Shown here: positions 3,834-63,009 of the stretch, in pieces | Layout of the letters: each line of letters begins with the position of its first letter | Position numbering within the stretch: the first letter of the stretch is position 1 | DNA from: Alphaproteobacteria bacterium | Lineage (GTDB): Bacteria > Pseudomonadota > Alphaproteobacteria > RF32 > CAG-239 | Direction of reading: 5' to 3' | DNA: 64,000 nucleotides | NCBI GenBank assembly: GCA_015062345.1 | Contig: SUUV01000005.1 | Span: forward strand, 5,175-69,174 | Program-made: the position numbers and the translations under genes | The notes under the pieces: generated by a model | Databases searched by the model: none | What the model saw: the letters and a program-made list of their open reading frames with translations, nothing else | Told to the model about the DNA's origin: nothing

Positions 3834-3966
3834 ATGTTTTAATCCTTAAAAATAGTTAAACTTAATTTGAAAGGCAAAAATTTACCTTACAATACGCATC
3901 ATAAACCGTTTTTTTTTTGCAAGTAAAAAGAGTCGTTTAAAGAATTTAAATCAAATTTGAGGTAAA
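3834..3966 (-). promoter_or_regulatory. Conserved family promoter/leader cassette (copy A) with T10 homopolymer (3909-3918)
   Basis: Near-identical to cassettes at 9733-9866, 44814-44953, 45863-45993 and 57547-57694. On the gene strand it reads TTGCAA-(A)n-CGGTT-TATGAT...AAGGA-ATG. The tract is 10 here and 12 in the other four copies. Confidence 0.6.
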
Positions 3967-4045: not shown

Positions 4046-6310
4046 ATGAAACAAGAACTCTTGGCGCCGGCAGGTGATATTGAAGCCGGATATGCGGCTC
4101 TGTATTATGGTGCAGATGCGGTTTATTTGGGCTTGCAAAAATTTTCGGCTCGTGCAACTGCTACAAACTTTGATGAACATAATTTAAATCAGTTTACGGC
4201 CTATGCACATCATTTGGGGCGAAAAGTATATGCCGCAATCAATACGGTTGTACAAGAAGATGAACTGCCTGATTTATTAAAAATATTAGATGTTTGTTCA
4301 AAATGCAACATAGATGCGGTTATATTGCAAGATTTGGGCGTGGCCCGTGTCATTAAACAATCGTATCCCGAACTTGAGTTGCACGCCAGTACACAAATGG
4401 CTGTTCATAACAAAGAAGGTGCGTTGTTTTTACAAAGTGTGGGCTTTTCCAGAGTTGTTTTGGCTCGTGAACTGACTTTGCCCGAAATTAAAGAAATCGC
4501 CTCAATTGAAGGTCTGGAAACCGAAGCCTTTATTCATGGTGCGTTGTGCTATTCTTATAGCGGATTATGTCAGTTTTCGGCTCTTGAAATCGGACGCAGT
4601 GCCAACAGGGGAAAATGTTTGTACCCTTGCAGAGCATGTTTTGAAAAAAACGGCATCAACAAACATTTCTTTTCAATGAAAGATATGGCTCTCGGTATTG
4701 ATGTCTTAAAAATGCCGGTTACTTCGCTTAAAATTGAAGGTCGTAAAAAAAGCGCACTTTATGTTGCCGCCGTAACCGATTATTACAGGCATATTTTAGA
4801 CGGCAAGGGGGCAGATTATCAAAAAGAAGAACGCATTAAACAAATTTTTTCTCGTCCGTGGTGTAAGTTTCATTTTAACGGAAAATCAAAAGATATTATC
4901 GACAGAGAGTTTGTCGGACACAGAGGATTAAAAATCGGTAAAATCGGCCGAATTTCAAAACAAGGCATTGAGATAAAGCTAAATCATAAAATCGGTCGGT
5001 TTGACGGTTTGCAAATTGATGTCAAAGGCAATGAAAAACCTTTCGGGTTTTCGATACAGAACATTAAACTGAACTCTAAAAATGTTTTTGAGGCCGCAAC
5101 CGGTGATGTCGTTCAAATCGAACTGCCGAAAAAATATCCAAATCTTGAAAAAGGGCTTGATGTATATCTGGCCTCATCAACCGAAGTTAAGGCATCTTAT
5201 CCGTATAAAAAGCCGAAACAAAATGAGTTTATCAATGGTATCAATCTTGATGTAAAGGTTGAGGTTTATCAAGATAACATATTGGCAAAATGTGATAATT
5301 TTGTTTCAAGTGTTGGCGGAAGCTTTGATAAGGCGCAAGATTTATCAAAAGTAACCTTGGCTTTTAAACAAGCATTTGAGAAAACCGGCGGAACTGAATT
5401 TTCATTAAAATCCATAAGTGTAGAAAACTCAGGTAGACTTTTTGTGCCTGTATCAAAAATCAATGAACTGAGGCGAGATTTATACTCTAAAATTGTGCCT
5501 TGCCACAAAAAGGGAACATTACCGACAATCAGCAAAAAAGAAAATGCCGGCTTTAAGGGGTGGATAATTAAAACCGATGATATAAAATGTTTAGAACAAT
5601 TAAATTTGGCCGATTTTGCAGAAATTGTTTATTTGATAAATCCAAAATCTGATGTTTCCGAACTTAAAAAATTGCCCAAAAACAAAGTGCGTATTGCTTT
5701 ACCTGAAGTTTGCCGTAAACCGAAAGTTTTTGAGCCGATTATAAATTCGCTCATCGAGTGCGGATATAAAAAATGGGAAATCGGCAATTATTGGGGGTTT
5801 AGTGCTTTGCCGACCGAAAAACTTGATATTTCGCTTTCATCATCTGTGTATATGCTAAACTCACAAGCTGTTGAACATGCAAAAGAAATGAAAGTTAAAA
5901 GAGTTTGTTTTTCCATTGAAGATACTTTAAGTAATATTAATCTGTTAAATGAAAAAATTTCCTTAACATCTTGTTTTATCGTATATCAAGATGCACCGCT
6001 GTTTATCAGTGCAGGTTGTATCAGAGATTATGATTGTAAAAACTGCAAAGGCGGGGTTGAAATTGCAGAGCTTAAAAAAGATGGCAGAATATATACGGCC
6101 ATATCCCAAAATTGTCAGTTAATGATGTTTAATGACAAGCCGTTATGTTTTGCTGATGAAGCAAAAAATGTTAAGGCAGATTTTTATCGTATGGACTTTT
6201 GCCATAAAAAATATGATGCGTTTAGGGTAAAACAAATTGCCGATAAGTTGATGAATTTTACAGATATTAACGGTTGTGTAAAAGCCAATATTAACAGTCA
6301 AAAAATTTGA
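4046..6310 (+). CDS. U32 family peptidase (long form with C-terminal extension)
   Basis: 754 aa. N-terminal region typical of U32 peptidases (LLAPAGD...AGADAVYLG...; conserved E..H..C.SYSG.C motif EAFIHGALCYSYSGLC). Confidence 0.75.
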   Translation: MKQELLAPAGDIEAGYAALYYGADAVYLGLQKFSARATATNFDEHNLNQFTAYAHHLGRKVYAAINTVVQEDELPDLLKILDVCSKCNIDAVILQDLGVARVIKQSYPELELHASTQMAVHNKEGALFLQSVGFSRVVLARELTLPEIKEIASIEGLETEAFIHGALCYSYSGLCQFSALEIGRSANRGKCLYPCRACFEKNGINKHFFSMKDMALGIDVLKMPVTSLKIEGRKKSALYVAAVTDYYRHILDGKGADYQKEERIKQIFSRPWCKFHFNGKSKDIIDREFVGHRGLKIGKIGRISKQGIEIKLNHKIGRFDGLQIDVKGNEKPFGFSIQNIKLNSKNVFEAATGDVVQIELPKKYPNLEKGLDVYLASSTEVKASYPYKKPKQNEFINGINLDVKVEVYQDNILAKCDNFVSSVGGSFDKAQDLSKVTLAFKQAFEKTGGTEFSLKSISVENSGRLFVPVSKINELRRDLYSKIVPCHKKGTLPTISKKENAGFKGWIIKTDDIKCLEQLNLADFAEIVYLINPKSDVSELKKLPKNKVRIALPEVCRKPKVFEPIINSLIECGYKKWEIGNYWGFSALPTEKLDISLSSSVYMLNSQAVEHAKEMKVKRVCFSIEDTLSNINLLNEKISLTSCFIVYQDAPLFISAGCIRDYDCKNCKGGVEIAELKKDGRIYTAISQNCQLMMFNDKPLCFADEAKNVKADFYRMDFCHKKYDAFRVKQIADKLMNFTDINGCVKANINSQKI

Positions 6311-9246: not shown

Positions 9247-9732
9247 TTATTCATAGGTAAATTGCACAACAGCAGTACCTGTTAATTCAGAGCCGTCTAA
9301 GACAGTATCATCACCATCATAATAGATGCTAAGTTTTCCGGTTAATTTACCGTCGGCATATTTTATGCTATTAACAAAAATTTTTTCTGCCTCATCGAGA
9401 TAAATCTTGTTATCATCACCAACTGTAAAAGTAGCACCATCAGGTAAACCTGTACAAGTTCCCGGAGTGCCTTGACCATCAAATAGCAAGGAATACTTAC
9501 TAGGCGAGGTGTTTGTAATTGTGCCGTTCACGTCCATCATAAAATAGGAAACACCAGAATAAGTACTATCAGTCATTCCAAAATACAAAGTACCAAAATC
9601 GATAGGCGTGCATTCAATAATGGTTGGTTCAATGATGGTAGCAGAAGCTTTAAGGTTGCTTGTTCCATCGGTGGCATTGGCTGTGGAGGCAGCCATCAAA
9701 GCCACAGCGCTCAAAAGAAAATATTTTCTCAT
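9247..9732 (-). CDS. Secreted SCPU-domain family protein, paralog 3
   Basis: MRKYFLLSAVALMAASTANA signal; CTPIDFGTLYFG; IKYADGKLTGKL; C-terminal AVVQFTYE. Confidence 0.6.
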   Translation of the reverse strand: MRKYFLLSAVALMAASTANATDGTSNLKASATIIEPTIIECTPIDFGTLYFGMTDSTYSGVSYFMMDVNGTITNTSPSKYSLLFDGQGTPGTCTGLPDGATFTVGDDNKIYLDEAEKIFVNSIKYADGKLTGKLSIYYDGDDTVLDGSELTGTAVVQFTYE

Positions 9733-9866
9733 ATGTTTTAATCCTTAAAAAAAGTTAAACTTAATTTGAAAGGTGCAAAAATTTACCTTTCACATCACAT
9801 CATAAACCGTTTTTTTTTTTTGCAAGTAAAAAGAGTCGTTTAAAGAATTTAAATCAAATTTGAGGT
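9733..9866 (-). promoter_or_regulatory. Conserved family promoter/leader cassette (copy B) with T12 homopolymer (9810-9821)
   Basis: Same cassette as copy A; the tract is 12 nt. Confidence 0.6.
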
Positions 9867-9870
9867 AGAG

Positions 9871-10140
9871 GTGCTGTCTCCTTTACTATCATACCGGTGC
9901 CCAAGCTTTAGCTTGGAATAGACACCGGTATTTAAGGGAACAATTTAGCTATATTACCACCTGGACTCCGGCATCAAGTGCCGGAGTGACAGTGAGGAGT
10001 CGGACTCCGGTATCTTCGTATCGGAGTGACAGTTAGGAGGTATGTTGCAAAGTATGAGGCTAAAAACAAATATTTTCCGATTTTAAATAAAAGTCATTTT
10101 TCGTCCTGCACTGCGTGTCAGGTCGAAAACGCATCTGATT
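9871..10140. repeat. Structured ~270-bp repeat element, left copy of an inverted pair (partner 45595-45850)
   Basis: Reverse-complement match to 45595-45850 over roughly 250-270 bp with few mismatches. It contains nested hairpins (accggtg[cccaagc-ttta-gcttgg]aatagacaccggt) and two CCGGCATCAAGTGCCGG-AGTGACAGTGAGGAG units. Confidence 0.7.
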
Positions 10141-10228
10141 TTGAAATGCGTTAGCAATGCTTCTGATTATTACTAATTCAAAGTCCCCTTTTTGCATAAA
10201 AGGGGACAGGTCAAAGAGAAATACAATT

Positions 10229-13200
10229 TTATTTTTGTTTTGTTATAGTACCGCCTGAGGATATATCTTCACCGGTTAGCGGTTTTAACAAACCGGAAGA
10301 AACATTATCATCAGTAACCGTCGGCTTCTTATTTTTTCTGTTGGCCGATTTTGGCTTAACGATTGTACCGCTTGGTGCAATTTTCGGACGATAAGAAACG
10401 GTATTGCTGTCAGACTTGGTGTTTGCTGTCGGCTTTTCCAATATAACATTTGGCGCATCAGCCGCATTTACTTCTTCATCTGTCGAATCTGCAACGGTAA
10501 ACTTACTTCTTTTTGCCGGTTGTTCCGTGTTGTCTTTTAAGATTAATAACGGTTTTGAAGCATCTTGTATCGGCGCGGATTTTGGCAAAATTTGAGAAAT
10601 TTCTCCTTCTTCCAAGATAATAATTTTTGAGTCTTGTTTATCATTATCTTTTAGTAAATTTTCATCTTCTTGCTCGTTTTCCTGAGATTCTTCTTTTTCT
10701 TTTTGAGCTGCTTTCAAGGCTTCTTGCTTTTTGATATTTTCATCTTCTTCTTTACGAACAATATCTTTGGCATAATCAAACAAATCTTGCATTGCTTGGT
10801 TAAGAGTTTGCATTTCGGTTTCAATTTTTGCAGATGTCTCTTTGAGCAAATCAAATTGCAATTCCATATGCGAAATGTCTTCTTTAAGTTCAATTTCGTT
10901 TTTGTTGTTTAAGGCCTTATTATGCAAATCGGCAATATCTCTCAATGAGGTTTCAATTTTGTTTTTATAATCGGCCACTTTGGGCTCGTTATCCAAAATA
11001 ACCAGCGAATTAATGTCAATTAATCTTTTAACATATGCGTTTAATGTGTCTTGATAATTAAGACCTTTATTAAGCGAGTTATCATAAGTGTTTTTAACCA
11101 ATGCATAATTTTCATTTGCCAAATTCTTAATGTCAGTAATATGGTGAGCTTCAATTTCTCTTTTCATATTATTAAGTTCAGATTCGAAAACTTCTGTTTT
11201 TGCATTAATTTGCGTTATCTGTTCATCAGCAAACTCTTGCTTAGCCAGATTTTGCATTTTCAACAATTCAGACAACATATCTTCGGCAATTTTTAACGAA
11301 CTGTCAAATTTGTTTTTAGATGCTACATTAGAACTTATTTTCGCATACTTTTTAATATTTGGTAACATTTCTTTTTCAAGATTGTTTTTGAGCTTTTCAA
11401 CCATATCTTGAGCTGAGTTCATTCTGTTATTAAGGTCTTCAATTCGAGCCTTTTCGGCTGCCTCTTGCTCCAGACGAACTTTTTCCCAGTAGGTATCATA
11501 TTTGTCTTTCAATGCAGAGCTGTTAATCACTAAATTCGGATTATTAAGCGAATCTGTCCACTTATACTCAATCGGAACAATTTTCTCTTTTAACTGATTG
11601 TATGTTAAGGCAAAATCTAAATTAACATTCCAATCGGTTAAATCTGCACTTCCTTTTGCGGTAACAATGGCGCGGTTTGAGTCCATATGAGCATTTTTGA
11701 TTGATATATTACCATTTTTGATGTCAAAATCAGCTTTTATATTGTAAAAGTTTGTTTCACCGCTTTGCAAGTTTGTTCTTAACATTTCATACAAACCGTC
11801 AGAGTGAGTTCTGCTTTTAACATCTTTTTCAATTGCATCTAAATCCCAACCCTTAAAGGCAGAATCTGCTATTTCAACAAAGGCTGAGCCGTTCAAACCT
11901 TTCACAAAGTTTTCTTCCGAAGTAACCGGTGCTATAAACTCAACCGTTGCATTTAGCAATCCGTCGGTAAACTCATATTTTTTACCGCCGAAATCGGATA
12001 TGTCGGCATCTTTTATATCAAATTTTGCTTTTATGCTCGGGGTGGCATTTATATCAATAGCAATGTCGGCATTATATTTTGCATTATCTTGTGTTGCCGA
12101 TATGTTTTTGATGTCAATTAAGCCTTGTTTTATGCTGATATCTGCTTTGGTGTTTTCAAAATTATGCCCGTTTATACTGAAATTATCGGCCGAAAATTTG
12201 CCGTCAAGTTCAAAAGTTTTATAAAATCCGTAATCAATTTTGACATTTTCATAAGTCGGTCTTTTCAAAAAGTTTAATGAAGTGTCAATGGTTTTTGATT
12301 TTTTGACTTGCTTAATGTTTAAATTTTCCGGATTGTAAATAAAACGGTTAAATTCAAACTTATTGGCATGCAAATTGGCCATAATTTTAGGAAAATCATT
12401 GATTGTAACCGAAAAATCACCGGCAAAATTGTTTGAACCGATAAAAGCATCAACATTATTTACCGACCAATTGTTATTATTTCCTTTAAGGTCGGCTTTA
12501 AATGTAAATATGTTTGCAGCCATCTGTTGCGGGTTATATTTATATCCGATACGATTAACAAAATCAACAAAATCAGGATATCTGAACTCAATATTGCCTC
12601 GATAATTTACCATTCCGTCCGCATTAAATATTTGTCCCGCATAAACCGAACTTAATTTATCAAGTGTAGTAATGGCTTTGATGTTAATATTATTAATATT
12701 GCCGCTGAAAATTCCTTTTGCATTAATATTTTGAGCGTCGGCAATAAGCTTTACTTTAGGAAGCGGTAAAGAAAATTTTTCAACAAAATCTTTAAACTTG
12801 GCAGTCTTGAAATTGTATTTTATGTTTTTAAAGTGTGGCATATCGGCGATATTATCCACATTGCCCGATAAGGACAAAACAGAATTGTTGATATTTTCAA
12901 TATTAAATTTTTCTATTTTAATATTTTCTTCGTCGGTAGTAAATTTTAAGGCAGATTTTTCAAATGCGATGCCGTTATAAACACCTAAATCTAAACTTGT
13001 ATTTACATTAAAATCAAAATTGTTCAAAAATTTAAACTTGTTTAATACCAATTTAAGTCTTTCGTTAAACGGAAGTTTCTTCTCATCTTCGTTTAAGTGC
13101 GGTATATAATTATCAAAGTTAATGCTATCGGCTTTTAACGATATAAACACATTGTTTCTTTTATCTCTTGCAATTCCGATTAAACCTTCAATCGAGGTTT

Positions 13201-14629
13201 TATCCATTTTAAAATCAATCGGAGCAATTTTGACTTGTTTTAAGTTTCCTTCCATAACAAAGTTTGCTGAAGCATTGCGATAAGTAGATTGAGCGTATGT
13301 GTCGGGTTTTAATTTTATATGATCTAAAAACTTTAGAAAATCTTGGCTGAGCATATTAACATTGAAACGATAGGATAACATTTTTTCATTTTCAAAAATA
13401 TCACCATTAACATTTATATCGGTGTCGCCCGAAAACAATCCGGACAGAGCCTTAATGGTGAAAACATCGTTTATTAAATCGGCACTGAAGTTAAAATTGC
13501 GCACAGGTTGATTGTTAAAAGTTGCTTTTACGGCCTTAATGTCGGTAATTAGGTCAAAATCATAATATGGTGCATATTCGGCATTATCAGCGTCAAGCTT
13601 TTTAAGTTGTTCCTTTATAATTCCGATGATGGGCATTAAATCTAAATCGGTCATTTCAAAAAAGGCTTCTATTTTTCTTTTTTCTTCATTCGGATTTGGC
13701 TTTAACGGAATTAAAACATTTCCGGCACCGGCGGTGTTATCGCCATATTTAATGATAAAGCTTGATAAATCAATTTGTCTTTCGTTGGTAATCAGCTCAA
13801 TGGACGAGGCTAAAGGATAATTAAATTCTGCGGGCAATATAACCTGATTGGTTAAACTGTTGATAAAATCAGACGGTTTTTTCGATTCTACTATAAAATT
13901 ACCCTTAATTTCTTTGTTGCTTGAAAGCATGGAGCCGTCAAAACGAGCATAACTTTCGGTTGTAGGATGTGTTAACACCAAGTTTAACGATGTGGCAAAA
14001 CTTTCCGACAATGTACCCAAGTTTAAGGCAAATCCGGCCGGATTGCCGTCTTTTATAAAGTTACCGTCAATTCGATACGGACCGAACAAACTTTCGGCAG
14101 TAACTTCGGCATTTAAGTTCTGTAAAGTAATGTCAAGACCTAAACCATCGTTTAATATTTCAACGGAAGCATTTTTTAACAAAACACTGTTTAAGGCTAC
14201 ATCAACGGTATCAAGTTTGTCTTTTTGAAAATCACTGATTTTTGAATACCAGTTTATTTTACCGTCAGAAAGAAAAGCGATTAAAATTTTGGCATCAAGC
14301 AAAGTCATATTTTCAATGACAAAATTACCCTTAATTAAAGGAACTAAAGCAAGGTCTGTAACCATCTCATCAATAACGGCAAGAGGTTTGTCAGAGCTTT
14401 CACCGGAGTTGTTATAAATTTTTATATCTTTTGCCGACAAGTACGGTGACGGTAAAAACGAAAGTGATACCGGCCCTTCAAAGACAATTTTTTTGCCCGA
14501 TATTTCTTCAAATTGCTCGGCAATTTTACTTTTATGCAAATTCCAGTCAATGGTAGATACATACACCGATAAACCGCCAAATGCCAATGCTACAACGAGT
14601 ACCAAAATGAAGAATATTTTTTTAATCAC
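10229..14629 (-). CDS. AsmA-family giant envelope protein (1466 aa) with C-terminal coiled-coil and low-complexity tail
   Basis: N-terminal TM helix plus AsmA-like start (IFFILVLVVALAFGGLSVYVSTIDWNL...). Long beta-rich middle. Acidic coiled-coil (KEKEESQENEQEDENLL) and a Ser/Thr/Pro/Lys-rich C-terminus. Confidence 0.6.
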   Translation of the reverse strand: MIKKIFFILVLVVALAFGGLSVYVSTIDWNLHKSKIAEQFEEISGKKIVFEGPVSLSFLPSPYLSAKDIKIYNNSGESSDKPLAVIDEMVTDLALVPLIKGNFVIENMTLLDAKILIAFLSDGKINWYSKISDFQKDKLDTVDVALNSVLLKNASVEILNDGLGLDITLQNLNAEVTAESLFGPYRIDGNFIKDGNPAGFALNLGTLSESFATSLNLVLTHPTTESYARFDGSMLSSNKEIKGNFIVESKKPSDFINSLTNQVILPAEFNYPLASSIELITNERQIDLSSFIIKYGDNTAGAGNVLIPLKPNPNEEKRKIEAFFEMTDLDLMPIIGIIKEQLKKLDADNAEYAPYYDFDLITDIKAVKATFNNQPVRNFNFSADLINDVFTIKALSGLFSGDTDINVNGDIFENEKMLSYRFNVNMLSQDFLKFLDHIKLKPDTYAQSTYRNASANFVMEGNLKQVKIAPIDFKMDKTSIEGLIGIARDKRNNVFISLKADSINFDNYIPHLNEDEKKLPFNERLKLVLNKFKFLNNFDFNVNTSLDLGVYNGIAFEKSALKFTTDEENIKIEKFNIENINNSVLSLSGNVDNIADMPHFKNIKYNFKTAKFKDFVEKFSLPLPKVKLIADAQNINAKGIFSGNINNINIKAITTLDKLSSVYAGQIFNADGMVNYRGNIEFRYPDFVDFVNRIGYKYNPQQMAANIFTFKADLKGNNNNWSVNNVDAFIGSNNFAGDFSVTINDFPKIMANLHANKFEFNRFIYNPENLNIKQVKKSKTIDTSLNFLKRPTYENVKIDYGFYKTFELDGKFSADNFSINGHNFENTKADISIKQGLIDIKNISATQDNAKYNADIAIDINATPSIKAKFDIKDADISDFGGKKYEFTDGLLNATVEFIAPVTSEENFVKGLNGSAFVEIADSAFKGWDLDAIEKDVKSRTHSDGLYEMLRTNLQSGETNFYNIKADFDIKNGNISIKNAHMDSNRAIVTAKGSADLTDWNVNLDFALTYNQLKEKIVPIEYKWTDSLNNPNLVINSSALKDKYDTYWEKVRLEQEAAEKARIEDLNNRMNSAQDMVEKLKNNLEKEMLPNIKKYAKISSNVASKNKFDSSLKIAEDMLSELLKMQNLAKQEFADEQITQINAKTEVFESELNNMKREIEAHHITDIKNLANENYALVKNTYDNSLNKGLNYQDTLNAYVKRLIDINSLVILDNEPKVADYKNKIETSLRDIADLHNKALNNKNEIELKEDISHMELQFDLLKETSAKIETEMQTLNQAMQDLFDYAKDIVRKEEDENIKKQEALKAAQKEKEESQENEQEDENLLKDNDKQDSKIIILEEGEISQILPKSAPIQDASKPLLILKDNTEQPAKRSKFTVADSTDEEVNAADAPNVILEKPTANTKSDSNTVSYRPKIAPSGTIVKPKSANRKNKKPTVTDDNVSSGLLKPLTGEDISSGGTITKQK

Positions 14630-17920: not shown

Positions 17921-18139
17921 TTAATTATTATCTTTTATGGCATCTGCGCCATCTTCAATAGTTTCTTTTGTGGCTTGATATCCGTCTTTTATAATATTTT
18001 TAGTACCTTGTGTAACATCTGATGCAACTTCACCGACAGTAGAATCTTTGTTAATTGTACCTTCATAAAAGCCGACACCTAAAAGGTATATTACAATTAT
18101 CACAAAGATATAAAACAAATATTTCAACAATGTTCCCAT
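17921..18139 (-). CDS. Small membrane protein (72 aa), unknown function
   Basis: AAGGAG lies 8 nt upstream of the ATG. One TM helix then a hydrophilic tail; a strong terminator follows. Confidence 0.5.
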   Translation of the reverse strand: MGTLLKYLFYIFVIIVIYLLGVGFYEGTINKDSTVGEVASDVTQGTKNIIKDGYQATKETIEDGADAIKDNN

Positions 18140-30435: not shown

Positions 30436-30512
30436 TGGTCGGGACGAGAGGATTTGAACCTCCGACTTCTTGCACCCCATGCAAGCGCTCTACCAGGCTG
30501 AACTACGTCCCG
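30436..30512 (-). tRNA. tRNA-Pro (anticodon GGG)
   Basis: The reverse complement gives a 77-nt cloverleaf: CGGGACG acceptor, GGTTCAAATCC T-arm, anticodon loop AUGGGGU, encoded CCA end. Confidence 0.8.
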
Positions 30513-30728
30513 TTATTATAACATAAATATACTTTTATCTCTTGGTGCAAGAAGTCTCCGACTTCTTGTCTTGCTTCGTAAAATTCGCTTTTATAAAAAG
30601 CTCATTAACTCCGCTTCGGTCAAAGAACTTATAACATTCGCTTCGTTCGCTTCTCGCTTCTCGCTCATTAACAAGTTCTTTCTTGAAATTAGATAAACTA
30701 TCCGTTGGGAAACTTTATCTAATTTCAA

Positions 30729-30778
30729 CCCCATGCAAGCGCTCTACCAGGCTGAACTACGTCCCGTTATTATAACAT
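30729..30778 (-). repeat. Duplicated fragment of tRNA-Pro (5' 38 nt of the tRNA plus 12 nt of flank)
   Basis: Exact copy of 30475-30524. Further direct repeats of aacattcgcttcgttcgcttctcgct...caagttcttt lie at ~30613-30670 and ~30774-30815. An inverted tRNA-derived palindrome lies at 30545-30572. Confidence 0.7.
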
Positions 30779-44813: not shown

Positions 44814-44953
44814 TTTTAAAATTCCTTTACAAAAATAGTTAAACTTAATTTGAAAGGCAAAAATTTACCTTTCACATCGCATCATAAACCGTTTTTTTTT
44901 TTTGCAAGTAAAAAGAGTCTAATTGTGGATTTAAATCAAAAATGAGGTAAAAA
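44814..44953 (-). promoter_or_regulatory. Conserved family promoter/leader cassette (copy C) with T12 (44892-44903)
   Basis: Same cassette. Confidence 0.6.
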
Positions 44954-45594
44954 CATATTGACTTTGATGCTTTTTTTTATAATTCTTAATAAGGGGGATG
45001 CGGATTATGATTGAAATGAAAGAAAAATTGACCGGTACACGCATATATTTGCAAAAGCCTGAGGTGAGTTTTGAGTTTGCAAAAAAAATGTTTGCGGTTG
45101 TTGATGCCAACAGAGATATCATTATGCCATGGTTAGAGTGGGCACTGCCAACTATTACAAAATCTGCGGAAGATGATTTTGCATTTGCCTATGAGGCTGA
45201 TAAGGCTTGGAAAACAGGTGAGCGTTTTGAATATCCGATATACGATATTAATAACGATGAATTTTTGGGTATAATTGGTGTGATAAAAAGAGGGAAAGAC
45301 CGAAATTTGGCATTTGAGCTTGGCTATTGGCTCAAAAAAGATGCTTGGAAAAAAGGATATATCCAAGAGGCAATCAAATTGGTTGAAGATGAGCTCTTTG
45401 CCCAAGGTATTGTGCGGATTACCATAAGAGCTGATGTGGAAAATGAAAATTCAAACAAAACAGCCCAAAAAGCCGGATATACTTTTGAAGGCACATTGAA
45501 AAAAAGTCACTATAATATGTGTTTGCATCAGTTTAGGGACCTGAATTTGTATTCTAAAACAAAAGCATAAATTCTAAATATTTCTAAAAGCGAA

Positions 45595-45850
45595 GATGTT
45601 TTTCTGACCTACCGCACAGCGCAGGTCGAAACATAACTTTTATTTAAAATCGGAAAATATTTGTTTTTTATCCTCATACTTTGAAACCGCCTCCTAACTG
45701 TCACTCCGGCACTTGATGCCAGAGTCCGCCTCCTCACTGTCACTCCGGCACTTGATGCCGGAGTCCAGGTGGTAATATAGCTAAATTATTCCCTGGATAC
45801 CGGTGTCTATTCCAAGCTAAAGCTTGGGCACCAGTATGACGGTGATGAGA
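45595..45850. repeat. Structured ~270-bp repeat element, right copy (inverted relative to 9871-10140)
   Basis: Reverse-complement match to the left copy. Contains two tandem ~36-bp units (ctgtcactccggcacttgatgcc[a/g]gagtcc), each with a CCGGCA...TGCCGG hairpin. Confidence 0.7.
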
Positions 45851-45862
45851 GAGACACCTCTA

Positions 45863-45993
45863 CATCAAATTTGATTTAAATCCACAAATAGACTCTTTTT
45901 ACTTGCAAAAAAAAAAAACGGTTTATGATGTGATGTGAAAGGGCATTTTTGCACCTTTCAAATTAAGTTTAACTATTTTTAAGGATTAAAATT
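45863..45993 (+). promoter_or_regulatory. Conserved family promoter/leader cassette (copy D) with A12 (45907-45918)
   Basis: Same cassette on the + strand: cTTGCAA(A)10CGGTT-TATGAT...AAGGATTAAAATT-ATG. Confidence 0.6.
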
Positions 45994-46470
45994 ATGAGAA
46001 AATATTTTCTTTTATCTGCCGTTGCTCTCTTGGCTGCAACATCTGCAAATGCAACCACCGATTACGCTGAAGTAACAGCTCGTGCTACCATTGAAGTGGC
46101 TGGTAAAATAAGTTGTACTGATATGAACTTCGGCACTATCGTTGTTAAAAAAGACAATGCAGAATCTGTTGTAGATATGAACTATATCTTTAATGACGAG
46201 TCTTATTGGGATGTATCTACTCAAGGTGATATTATATCCATAACAGGATACGATTTAACAAAATGTGAAAATGGCTTTCTTGCTATGGGTGACCCATATC
46301 ATCCGGAATTTCCGAGCGAAATTACTTTATCTAACGGTACAAGCAAGATTACTGTAACCGATGTGTATTATGATGGAGAAAAAGTATCTTCAGCCAAATT
46401 ACACATTCCGGCAAAGGTAACCGGTGGAGAATATACAACATCATTTACTATCCAACAGGTAATGCCATAA
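45994..46470 (+). CDS. Secreted SCPU-domain family protein, paralog 6
   Basis: MRKYFLLSAVALLAATSANA; CTDMNFGTIVVKKDN; KLHIPAKVTGGEYTTSFTIQQV. Confidence 0.6.
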   Translation: MRKYFLLSAVALLAATSANATTDYAEVTARATIEVAGKISCTDMNFGTIVVKKDNAESVVDMNYIFNDESYWDVSTQGDIISITGYDLTKCENGFLAMGDPYHPEFPSEITLSNGTSKITVTDVYYDGEKVSSAKLHIPAKVTGGEYTTSFTIQQVMP

Positions 46471-57546: not shown

Positions 57547-57694
57547 AAATATTTTACCTCATTTTTGATTTAAATCATTTAAACGACTCTTTTTACTTGC
57601 AAAAAAAAAAAACGGTTTATGATGCGTCTTGAAAGGTAAATTTTTGCACCTTTCAAATTAAGTTAAACTATTTTTTATGTAAGGAATTAAAAAA
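57547..57694 (+). promoter_or_regulatory. Conserved family promoter/leader cassette (copy E) with A12 (57601-57612)
   Basis: Same cassette. Confidence 0.6.
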
Positions 57695-62592: not shown

Positions 62593-63009
62593 TTATTTTT
62601 TTGGAGGCAACTGTACAACAATGTTAAATTTTGCGCCCGAGGGTAAAACTCTTGAAGAAACATAAAAATCATCTGTTTGAGTGATGCTTAAACAATCAAG
62701 CAATGTGTTGATATCTGCCTTATATAAAGTTTCATATTTTCCGATTTCGGACATATAAGCTCCATGCCATTTTTTTATCCATCTGGAAACCGATTGTGCC
62801 GAAACACCGACAATAGACGCAATTTCACGCATGGAAAGTCCGGATATGTGCAGCAAATGTACCAAAAGCTTTAATGACAAGGGTTTTCCTGCCGGCGCCT
62901 GCTTTGTAAACTGATATTTACAGTTTTTGCATTTATATCTTTGCCAACCGAACACCTGACCGTTTTTAACAATTTTATCATCGGCACATTTCGGACACTT
63001 AATTTGCAT
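62593..63009 (-). mobile_element. Orphan IS1-type InsA-like zinc-ribbon + HTH protein (no transposase catalytic partner)
   Basis: CPKC...CKNC zinc ribbon, then the HTH SMREIASIVGVSAQSVSRWIKKW. Only ~100 bp separate it from the MFP gene, so there is no room for an InsB/DDE ORF. Confidence 0.5.

Follow-up and report, generated by a model that had tools for sequence, protein, structure and literature searches.

The stretch of DNA analysed here, hereafter the window, comprises 64,000 nucleotides of contig SUUV01000005.1 (positions 5,175 to 69,174 of the forward strand; assembly GCA_015062345.1, Alphaproteobacteria bacterium) and has a G+C content of 36%. Its genes for small secreted DUF4402-like proteins include family genes A and B, which point outward from a 35.5-kb interval, and each is preceded by a promoter cassette and, directly upstream of the cassette, by a hairpin-rich element (Table 1). 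Upstream of copy A of the element lies the 3′ end of a co-oriented AsmA gene (10229-14629, minus), upstream of copy B the 3′ end of a co-oriented GNAT acetyltransferase gene (44998-45570, plus), and the interval holds cdd, deoA, metK, ppa, ksgA, surA, lptD, lptF/G, an ABC transporter, folA and thyA. In this study we describe the core of the element, which recurs at at least 10 loci in contigs of the same species and which we regard, with moderate confidence, as a new interspersed palindromic repeat.

The inverted pair

An earlier note, made from the letters of the window alone, had described a 270-bp structured repeat present as an inverted pair (9871-10140 and 45595-45850), each copy immediately preceding a cassette with its family gene, which faces outward. 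Direct reading, a repeat search (pairs I2, I6, I8 and I13), pairwise alignment and BLAST all bear this out, and place the reverse complement of 9865-10140 (plus) at 45594-45863. The inverted homology had been put at roughly 0.45 kb, including element, cassette and signal-peptide codons. When contig L001, which is identical to copy A, was used as the BLAST query against the window, element, promoter cassette and first family-gene codons together measured 441 nt at 87.8% identity (E=1e-143), and the element alone was 88% identical over 250 nt. Without any mismatch, the copies agree over at most 58 bp in the element and at most 52 bp in the cassette.

The sequence CGGAGTGACAGTKAGGAG occurs four times in the window, where none would be expected, and is confined to the two elements. 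The doubled internal unit of the earlier note is thereby upheld, with a period of 39-40 nt instead of about 36 bp; Tandem Repeats Finder did not call it, merely two diverged copies being present per element. Neither blastn nor a covariance model built from seven copies (R1) found a third core in the window, and the other window cassettes lack the element, which the basic cassette hence does not need, as had been supposed. A candidate degenerate third copy at 17.9-18.1 kb was rejected, the region being a terminator hairpin and a small membrane-protein gene.

Anatomy of the core

Judged from the alignments, the 270-bp element is a composite of an inserted core of about 187 nt and about 85 nt of the cassette's own upstream region. 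Thus the earlier description of a discrete, hairpin-rich and internally repeated element holds for the core, and its 270-bp extent does not. The limits of the core were placed as in Table 1 because cassettes without a core run from TGAGGT straight into A-rich DNA. Across copies the core is 145-190 nt long, and the alignments give a constant order of pyrimidine-rich leader, hairpin H1, central hairpin H2 and unit hairpin(s). H1 has the form ATACCGGTG…CACCGGTAT with an inner stem CCAAGC/GCTTGG, H2 is CCAGG…CCTGG, and the unit hairpin is ACTCCGGCA-TCAAG-TGCCGGAGT, followed by GACAGTKAGGAGG; both H1 and the unit hairpin form stem-loops. When the right arm (the GC hairpin and GACAGTKAGGAG) is reverse-complemented, the left arm (leader and H1) can be aligned to it, including the flanking TCCAGG. 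This alignment has 22 invariant columns, GTCA, CCGG and TCC among them, and the inverted similarity is subterminal. The core therefore forms an imperfect palindrome: two related stem-loop modules stand in inverted orientation, each consisting of a GC-rich stem-loop that ends in CCGG(A/T)(G/A)T and is followed by GAC-N-GT-N-A-N-GG-AG.

The right-arm unit varies in number. It is present twice in copies A and B of the window (winA and winB in the alignments) and in L020, L044 and L081a, once in L056, L059, L060 and L063, and not at all in L081b, which is cut down to the 3′ flank of the unit. In another strain (AsmA 98.8% identical), the orthologous AsmA-gene A locus, L059, has one unit, versus two in the window. 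The tail types beyond the core also vary between copies. Compared with L076 (5735-5760) and L081b (6070-6090), copy A has about 86 extra nt between TTTTCCGATT and ATTACTAATTC (window 10080-10165), a stretch that contains the distal hairpin and is bordered by CCGATT/CTGATT; L044 carries a different hairpin insert of about 60 nt at this position, and the cassette-upstream region is itself a mosaic of optional hairpin modules.

Table 1. Coordinates of the two element copies and of the genes and cassettes that adjoin them in the window.
Feature	Position	Strand	Basis or remark
Copy A core, 187 nt, two-unit form	9867-10053	+ (antisense to family gene A)	sequence, alignments, consensus fold, core-less cassettes
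Copy A leader	9867-9890	+	
Copy A hairpin H1	9891-9931	+	
Copy A central hairpin H2	9932-9964	+	
Copy A unit-1 hairpin	9965-9987	+	then GACAGTGAGGAG at 9988-9999
Copy A unit-2 hairpin	10004-10027	+	then GACAGTTAGGAGG at 10028-10040
Copy A right end	10041-10053	+	
Copy B core, 184 nt, two-unit form	45678-45861	-	inverted partner of copy A; R1 score 208.5 bits
Left flanking direct-repeat member, copy A	9861-9866	+	TGAGGT, last cassette bases
Left flanking direct-repeat member, copy B	45862-45867	-	TGATGT
Right flanking direct-repeat member, copy A	10054-10059	+	ATGAGG
Right flanking direct-repeat member, copy B	45672-45677	-	
Copy A A-rich tail (10054-10096) and distal hairpin (10097-10129)	within 10054-10140	+	cassette-upstream region, outside core
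Copy B A-rich tail and distal hairpin (about 45600-45633)	within 45594-45677	-	just past GNAT stop codon
Family gene A, 161-aa secreted DUF4402-like protein	9247-9732	-	P0003, E7016_01870
Family gene B, 158-aa secreted DUF4402-like protein	45994-46470	+	P0001, E7016_02055
Cassette of gene A (promoter/5′-UTR)	9733-9866	-	TTGCAA, A12, CGGTT-TATGAT, 5′-UTR hairpin, Shine-Dalgarno
Cassette of gene B (promoter/5′-UTR)	45862-45993	+	
All window cassettes	3834-3964, 9733-9866, 44814-44949, 45862-45993, 57555-57694		

Further copies and empty sites

Related contigs, 263 kb in total, were fetched through the family proteins and the neighbouring proteins and searched with blastn and R1. The search for further copies that the earlier note had proposed located the core upstream of gene A, gene B, P0093 (L056/L057), P0115 (L060/L061/L063), P0068 (L087/L088), a 149-aa family gene (L081:7186-7410) and a 156-aa family gene (L076:1-51), and downstream of P0011 (L044/L045). 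At L020:1-340, the very end of the 16.3-kb contig SUUR01000029.1 of a GenBank metagenome-assembled genome (MAG), there is a tandem doublet in which a second H1 module directly follows the tail of the first copy. An orphan core lies at L081:5927-6088 between a UvrD gene, whose stop codon it supplies, and an unrelated open reading frame (ORF); it is accompanied by about 38 nt of cassette and by no family gene. All other copies found occupy the same cassette position, and about one third of the cassettes inspected have a core. The pair that had been taken to bracket a 35.5-kb segment is therefore two of these dispersed copies.

The cassettes without a core show what the site looks like when empty. 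Within the species (window 3964, 44949 and 57555; L079 and L047), TGAGGT continues directly into A-rich sequence, at several loci followed by ATGTCAT and a hairpin module, and four such loci (L079, L047/L048, L082 and L056:2447) carry, right after GAGGT, modules homologous to the tail and distal hairpin of copies A and B. Filled cassettes read TGAGGT-[core]-ATGAGG(A/C)T and then A-rich sequence. In the sister-species cassette at about position 11750 of L067, the two flanks abut as GTAGAGGT^ATGAGCAAAAAC (here and below a caret marks a junction). Hence, compared with core-less cassettes of the same species and of the sister species, the core stands out as a clean indel, and it is flanked by a short direct repeat, TGAGGT … ATGAGG; every copy may descend from one insertion. 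The sister-species loci L067-L071 have cassettes at 82-87% identity and no core detectable by blastn or R1. The sister species is a different species-level MAG (locus tags IJ019_), and the coding parts of its family genes are highly diverged despite the conserved cassette.

Wider searches added little. A scan of genome contigs for the two-unit pattern gave 37 stretches, and among the three that were read only L020 was a relative. Probes for H1 and the unit had no match in a metagenome contig collection, which evidently lacks the source samples, since the JGI contigs match exactly; a scan of a viral collection gave no match, and plasmid and phage collections held nothing similar to the element.

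Conservation of the hairpins

Both strands of both window copies fold far better than shuffled sequences (z -5.1 to -6.1), in agreement with the hairpin-rich character noted earlier. A model-based alignment of 11 copies (A9) was given a consensus fold with RNAalifold, and its base pairs were counted: 98.8% of the cells are paired, versus 27-38% when the partners are slid, and in helices 3, 4 and 6 the figure is 100%. Five pairs are doubly changed, a number reached by 7 of 500 shuffles; neither the 11 doubly changed cells nor the covariation score was reached by any of the 500. The inner stem of H1 changes from CCAAGC/GCTTGG to CCGAAC/GTTCGG in L060, L063, L081b and L087, and the unit stem from CCGGCA/TGCCGG to CCGTGG/CCACGG in L020 and to CCGGTA/TATCGG in the second unit of copy A. 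The copies are closely related, and the independent compensatory events are accordingly few. This pattern of substitution indicates that the hairpins are under selection for pairing.

Insertions of an IS110-family element

Two copies of the core are interrupted, in opposite orientations, by the gene of an IS110-family transposase (L076:5795-5898 / L077:3203-3306 and L086:1-203). The three contigs end inside the insertion sequence (IS). The gene fragment ends in …KKMVAIIAVMRKIIITLNAILKPLCV before the stop, and its C-terminal 60 aa match NCBIfam NF033542, 'IS110 family RNA-guided transposase' (E=2e-7), below the full-length cut-off, as only 60 aa are present; a Pfam search with this fragment gave no match. 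In L076/L077, the IS end …CTGGGTTGATGAC meets AGTTAGGAGG after the unit hairpin (…GATGAC^AGTTAGGAGG), and in L086 the same end meets, on the opposite strand, CGTGATGGGAG after H1 (…GATGAC^CGTGATGGGAG). Both junctions lie just 3′ of a GC stem-loop at …TGAC^. The target sites, CCGGAGTGAC^AGT and CCGGTATGAC^CGT, are 'stem-loop plus TGAC' sites that correspond to each other in the two arms. Their position agrees with the known insertion of IS110 elements into repetitive extragenic palindromic (REP) sequences (PMC11208160), and for ISPpu10 a target-encoded stem-loop beside the guide match adds specificity (bioRxiv 10.64898/2026.03.19.712850). We also considered whether the core might be a non-autonomous derivative of this IS110 element and rejected it, since by-eye comparison found the IS end (…ATCTGGGTTGATGAC) unlike either terminus of the core.

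The family genes and their cassettes

The family proteins are small and secreted, with weak similarity to DUF4402. Of the 193 relatives found by a profile search, nearly all belong to uncultured Alphaproteobacteria and come from animal-gut metagenomes, and about 30 of the listed matches have the prefix E7016_, as do the window's own proteins. The organism is present in goat or ruminant gut samples, for example JGI 3300032167, 3300031555 and 3300029705. Every family gene has a common cassette of about 135 nt with TTGCAA, a poly-A run usually of 12, CGGTT-TATGAT, a hairpin in the 5′ untranslated region (5′-UTR) and a Shine-Dalgarno sequence. A run of 12 gives a promoter spacer of 15 bp; one window cassette has 10 (3909-3918). 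Between samples, the run of one and the same gene measures 12/12/12/10/12 for P0012, 12/12/10/12 for P0115 and 12/12/13 for P0093, and one sister-species cassette (L067-L071) has a run of only 8. This variation looks like slipped-strand phase variation of a family with at least 30 members, although homopolymer assembly error is possible.

Discussion

Starting from what is observed directly (the sequence anatomy, the distribution of copies, the variable modules, the covariation, the IS insertions and the empty sites), we consider it somewhat probable that the core is a new, lineage-specific small interspersed palindromic repeat of the kind represented by REP sequences and their doublets (REPINs; bacterial interspersed mosaic elements, BIMEs), by BOX elements or by MITEs (miniature transposable elements with inverted repeats). 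We favor this interpretation because of the palindromic doublet, the variable modules, the tandem and orphan copies, the empty sites with a flanking direct repeat, the restriction to a single lineage, the compensatory changes and the landing of an IS110 element. According to this interpretation, the core, which is inserted at the distal end (…TGAGGT^) of the DUF4402-like family promoter cassette, a single fixed point, would have spread in one of two ways: it may have been inserted site-specifically in trans or, the simpler assumption, it may have passed from one near-identical cassette to another through gene conversion or duplication; either route is proposed to account for its near-exclusive location there. 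The upkeep of the hairpins would be expected if the stem-loops have to be recognised by a protein or by a single-stranded intermediate. A resident RNA-guided IS of the IS110 family lands at the 'stem-loop plus TGAC' sites of both arms, any effect on neighbouring genes would be a by-product of the hairpins, and the inverted pair at 9.9 and 45.8 kb would be two ordinary copies.

Several observations weigh against this interpretation. Classical REP, BOX and MITE families are scattered over many unrelated intergenic sites. Nearly all copies of the core are at the same cassette position, and the spread may be purely a matter of cassette duplication or conversion, not of transposition. No mobilising enzyme, either a REP-associated tyrosine transposase (RAYT) or a matching IS, was found in a search that covered the window, and the direct repeat at the boundaries may stem from a single ancestral event. 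Moreover, the two strands of the core differ. Where one side of a stem alone has changed, the change is almost always C-to-T when read on the strand antisense to the family gene, so that G.U pairs arise on that strand and A.C on the opposite one (about 9 versus 1), and copies A and B fold 11-16 kcal/mol better on the antisense strand (-99 versus -83 and -88). This asymmetry is a hint that one particular strand occurs in single-stranded form, for instance as a transcript.

The alternative that the asymmetry brings to mind is a structured noncoding RNA, transcribed divergently from the cassette and antisense to the family gene, acting as a regulator of the family in trans or as a cis RNA tied to the phase-variable promoter. 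The earlier note had suggested a structured RNA or a protein-binding array. In favour of an RNA, compensatory changes support the helices, and the distal cassette sequence that the orphan copy retains upstream of its leader could hold a promoter. However, the Rfam search that the note had recommended gave no match for the element; the gathering-level matches in the window are its two tRNAs, and at E<=10 only chance matches far below threshold appeared. Scans of the element for promoters and terminators found nothing conserved between copies above shuffled expectation, and the antisense strand has neither a consensus promoter nor an intrinsic terminator. The same excess of pyrimidine transitions occurs in unpaired columns and is not confined to the stems, and a one-unit copy free of C-to-T changes folds equally on both strands (-60.4 versus -61.7 kcal/mol), as expected for a DNA palindrome. 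We therefore rejected G.U wobble as proof of an RNA strand. Furthermore, the variable module number, the tandem duplication and the palindromic homology of the arms are unusual for a small RNA gene.

The trans role would draw on the A/U-rich DNA 3′ of the core. On the family-gene strand, this tail (window 10054-10085 and 45645-45677) reads AAAATCGGAAAATATTTGTTTTT and resembles the family start region AAAATGAGAAAATATTTTCTTTT, a likeness that could be a gene-start relic, an antisense match or an AT-rich coincidence. The antisense match of the tail to AAAAUGAGAAAAUAUUUUCUUUU, in the family mRNA start region, extends over 19 of 23 nt, and the duplexes of tail B with five of seven family start regions reach -18.3 to -21.1 kcal/mol, compared with a mean of -12.8 for 50 other genes, a weak enrichment. 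Tail A, however, shows no enrichment for pairing with family starts, several unrelated genes scoring equally; a similar 17-nt match is seen at 18108-18124, where simply an unrelated gene for a small membrane protein begins; and the tail also occurs in core-less cassettes and is thus outside the core. Antisense pairing of the tail was rejected on these grounds. A small ORF in the tail was likewise rejected: the frame shifts with an A5/A6 run, the ATG is lost in L081a, and the candidate ORFs are frameshifted between copies. Taken together, this evidence leaves a noncoding RNA unlikely in our estimation. A bolder version, in which the core RNA links the ON/OFF state of one family member to the control of at least 30 other DUF4402-like genes in a circuit of one-at-a-time expression, appears to us distinctly improbable. 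Such a circuit might, for example, work through pairing of the A/U-rich 3′ extension with the conserved AUGAGAAAAUAUUUU start region or through titration of a factor by the repeated AGGAG sites, and the IS110 element would then exploit an RNA gene as a safe harbour.

It is also quite unlikely, in our judgment, that the core is a cis-regulatory or insulating module at the DNA level, in which hairpins, a cruciform or an array of protein sites isolate or tune the phase-variable promoter with respect to a co-oriented upstream gene. The setting of the copies is suggestive: all cassette-linked copies whose upstream side is readable follow a co-oriented gene or ORF (AsmA, GNAT, a lipoprotein ORF in L056, an HTH ORF in L060, ATP_bind_3 in L081 and the P0011 gene), the three window cassettes that face a divergent gene lack the core, and insertion of the core moves the A-rich upstream tract about 190 bp from the promoter. 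However, co-oriented contexts without a core also exist (P0012 in L047, P0011 in L044, L003 and L083), and the orphan copy has no adjoining promoter. On the gene strand, none of the hairpins has a U-run behind it and none is therefore an intrinsic terminator, and the compensatory changes preserve pairing while altering sequence, which argues against sequence recognition in double-stranded DNA.

The earlier note had also proposed that homologous recombination between the copies would invert the whole segment from the AsmA-like gene through thyA. The extent and identity of the inverted homology, with its two long exact runs, would be enough for occasional RecA-dependent exchange, and cassettes look like breakpoints elsewhere: in L003:1-1100, the gene that precedes gene A encodes a Toprim domain, the cassette is a hybrid and the element is absent, and upstream of P0068 there is, depending on the sample (L082/L085, L083, L086-L088), a further gene of the family, a Fic gene or the element, whereas the downstream neighbour of P0068 is conserved. 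These varying contexts reflect either cassette-mediated strain rearrangement or assembly chimeras. However, the flipped orientation was seen in none of the nine contigs spanning the AsmA or GNAT junction, which come from several JGI/ENA metagenome samples. The contigs joining AsmA, element and gene A (L001, L002 and L059) and those joining GNAT and copy B (L005 and L072-L075) have the arrangement of the window. A Pfam search of the approximately 57 window proteins found no invertase, recombinase, RAYT or IS110 gene, and the GC skew follows gene orientation without breakpoints at 9.9 or 45.8 kb. Furthermore, the segment holds housekeeping genes, and with so many loci carrying the repeat the pair is not special. 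Inversion as the function of the pair is thus very improbable; a rare RecA-dependent inversion could be supported by the repeats and is physically possible, although unsupported, and the pair is not a dedicated inversion switch. Paralogy alone, that is, a longer duplicated upstream region without any discrete element, would explain why the shared region runs on into the tail and distal hairpin, which are ordinary cassette-upstream DNA, but it is largely refuted and in our view highly improbable given the clean indel relative to core-less cassettes, the orphan core without a family gene, the whole-module variation and the compensatory substitutions.

Comparison with known repeats

If the core is an interspersed repeat, its nearest counterparts are instructive in both their likenesses and their differences. 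As in the REPINs and BIMEs of Escherichia coli and Pseudomonas, two related imperfect palindromes are inverted around a short spacer, the hairpins are kept by compensatory change, the copies are extragenic and multiple, an IS110-family element lands next to a GC stem-loop (PMC11208160), and, as in BIMEs, optional modules form a mosaic. In contrast to these repeats, the arms of the core are longer (about 60-70 nt), H1 has an inserted inner stem, and about 10 copies were seen in the contigs searched, not hundreds, nearly always at the one promoter-cassette site; the window proteins include no RAYT, and there is no sequence similarity to known REPs.

The BOX elements of Streptococcus pneumoniae (boxA-boxB(n)-boxC) are likewise composite, with ends that pair with each other and a self-folding internal module of about 40 nt in variable tandem number, also between strains; this is a likeness of behaviour only. 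BOX can supply the stop codon of a gene, as the orphan core does for UvrD, and probably affects co-transcribed genes through its structure (PMC3049150). However, the sequence and the phylum are unrelated, the core has 0-2 units compared with up to about 8 boxB, and BOX is scattered at more than 100 sites, whereas the core is tied to one cassette position.

The Correia and other MITEs of Neisseria resemble the core in being small (about 150-190 bp), noncoding and highly base-paired, in having a short direct repeat at the insertion boundaries and in adjoining variable surface-protein genes. Unlike their sharp terminal repeats of 26 bp, the inverted similarity of the core is subterminal and imperfect. 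The target duplication of the core may go back to a single ancestral event, a cognate transposase is not known, and there is no evidence in the core for the promoter, integration host factor or RNase III site functions. The invertible segments of the Hin/Gin, FimB/E and Bacteroides Mpi systems also have inverted repeats next to variable surface-protein promoters. However, the repeats described here enclose 35.5 kb of housekeeping genes instead of a promoter or tail-fibre cassette, the window has no recombinase gene, and the nine junction contigs include no flipped variant.

Should the repeat interpretation be correct, it would add a REPIN/BOX-like family from a poorly known lineage of low-GC animal-gut Alphaproteobacteria represented only by MAGs, and the promoter cassettes to which the repeat is linked would belong to a very large family of secreted proteins that is apparently phase-variable. 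The repeat would also provide a natural stem-loop-plus-target site for an IS110 RNA-guided transposase and thus a new example for the target rules of bridge RNAs. The repeats and cassettes explain assembly breaks and variation at the family genes and mark candidate sites of strain-level rearrangement.

Other features of the window

The only transposase-related gene in the window is an IS1 InsA-like ORF (Zn_ribbon_InsA and HTH) at its far end (62593-63009, minus). The segments 30436-30512 and 30728-30778 concern tRNA-Pro(GGG): between the genes for tRNA-Pro and tRNA-Ser(GCT), 254 bp from the intact tRNA-Pro gene, there is an exact 51-nt copy of the 5′ part of tRNA-Pro, which may be the scar of an integration or excision event at the tRNA.

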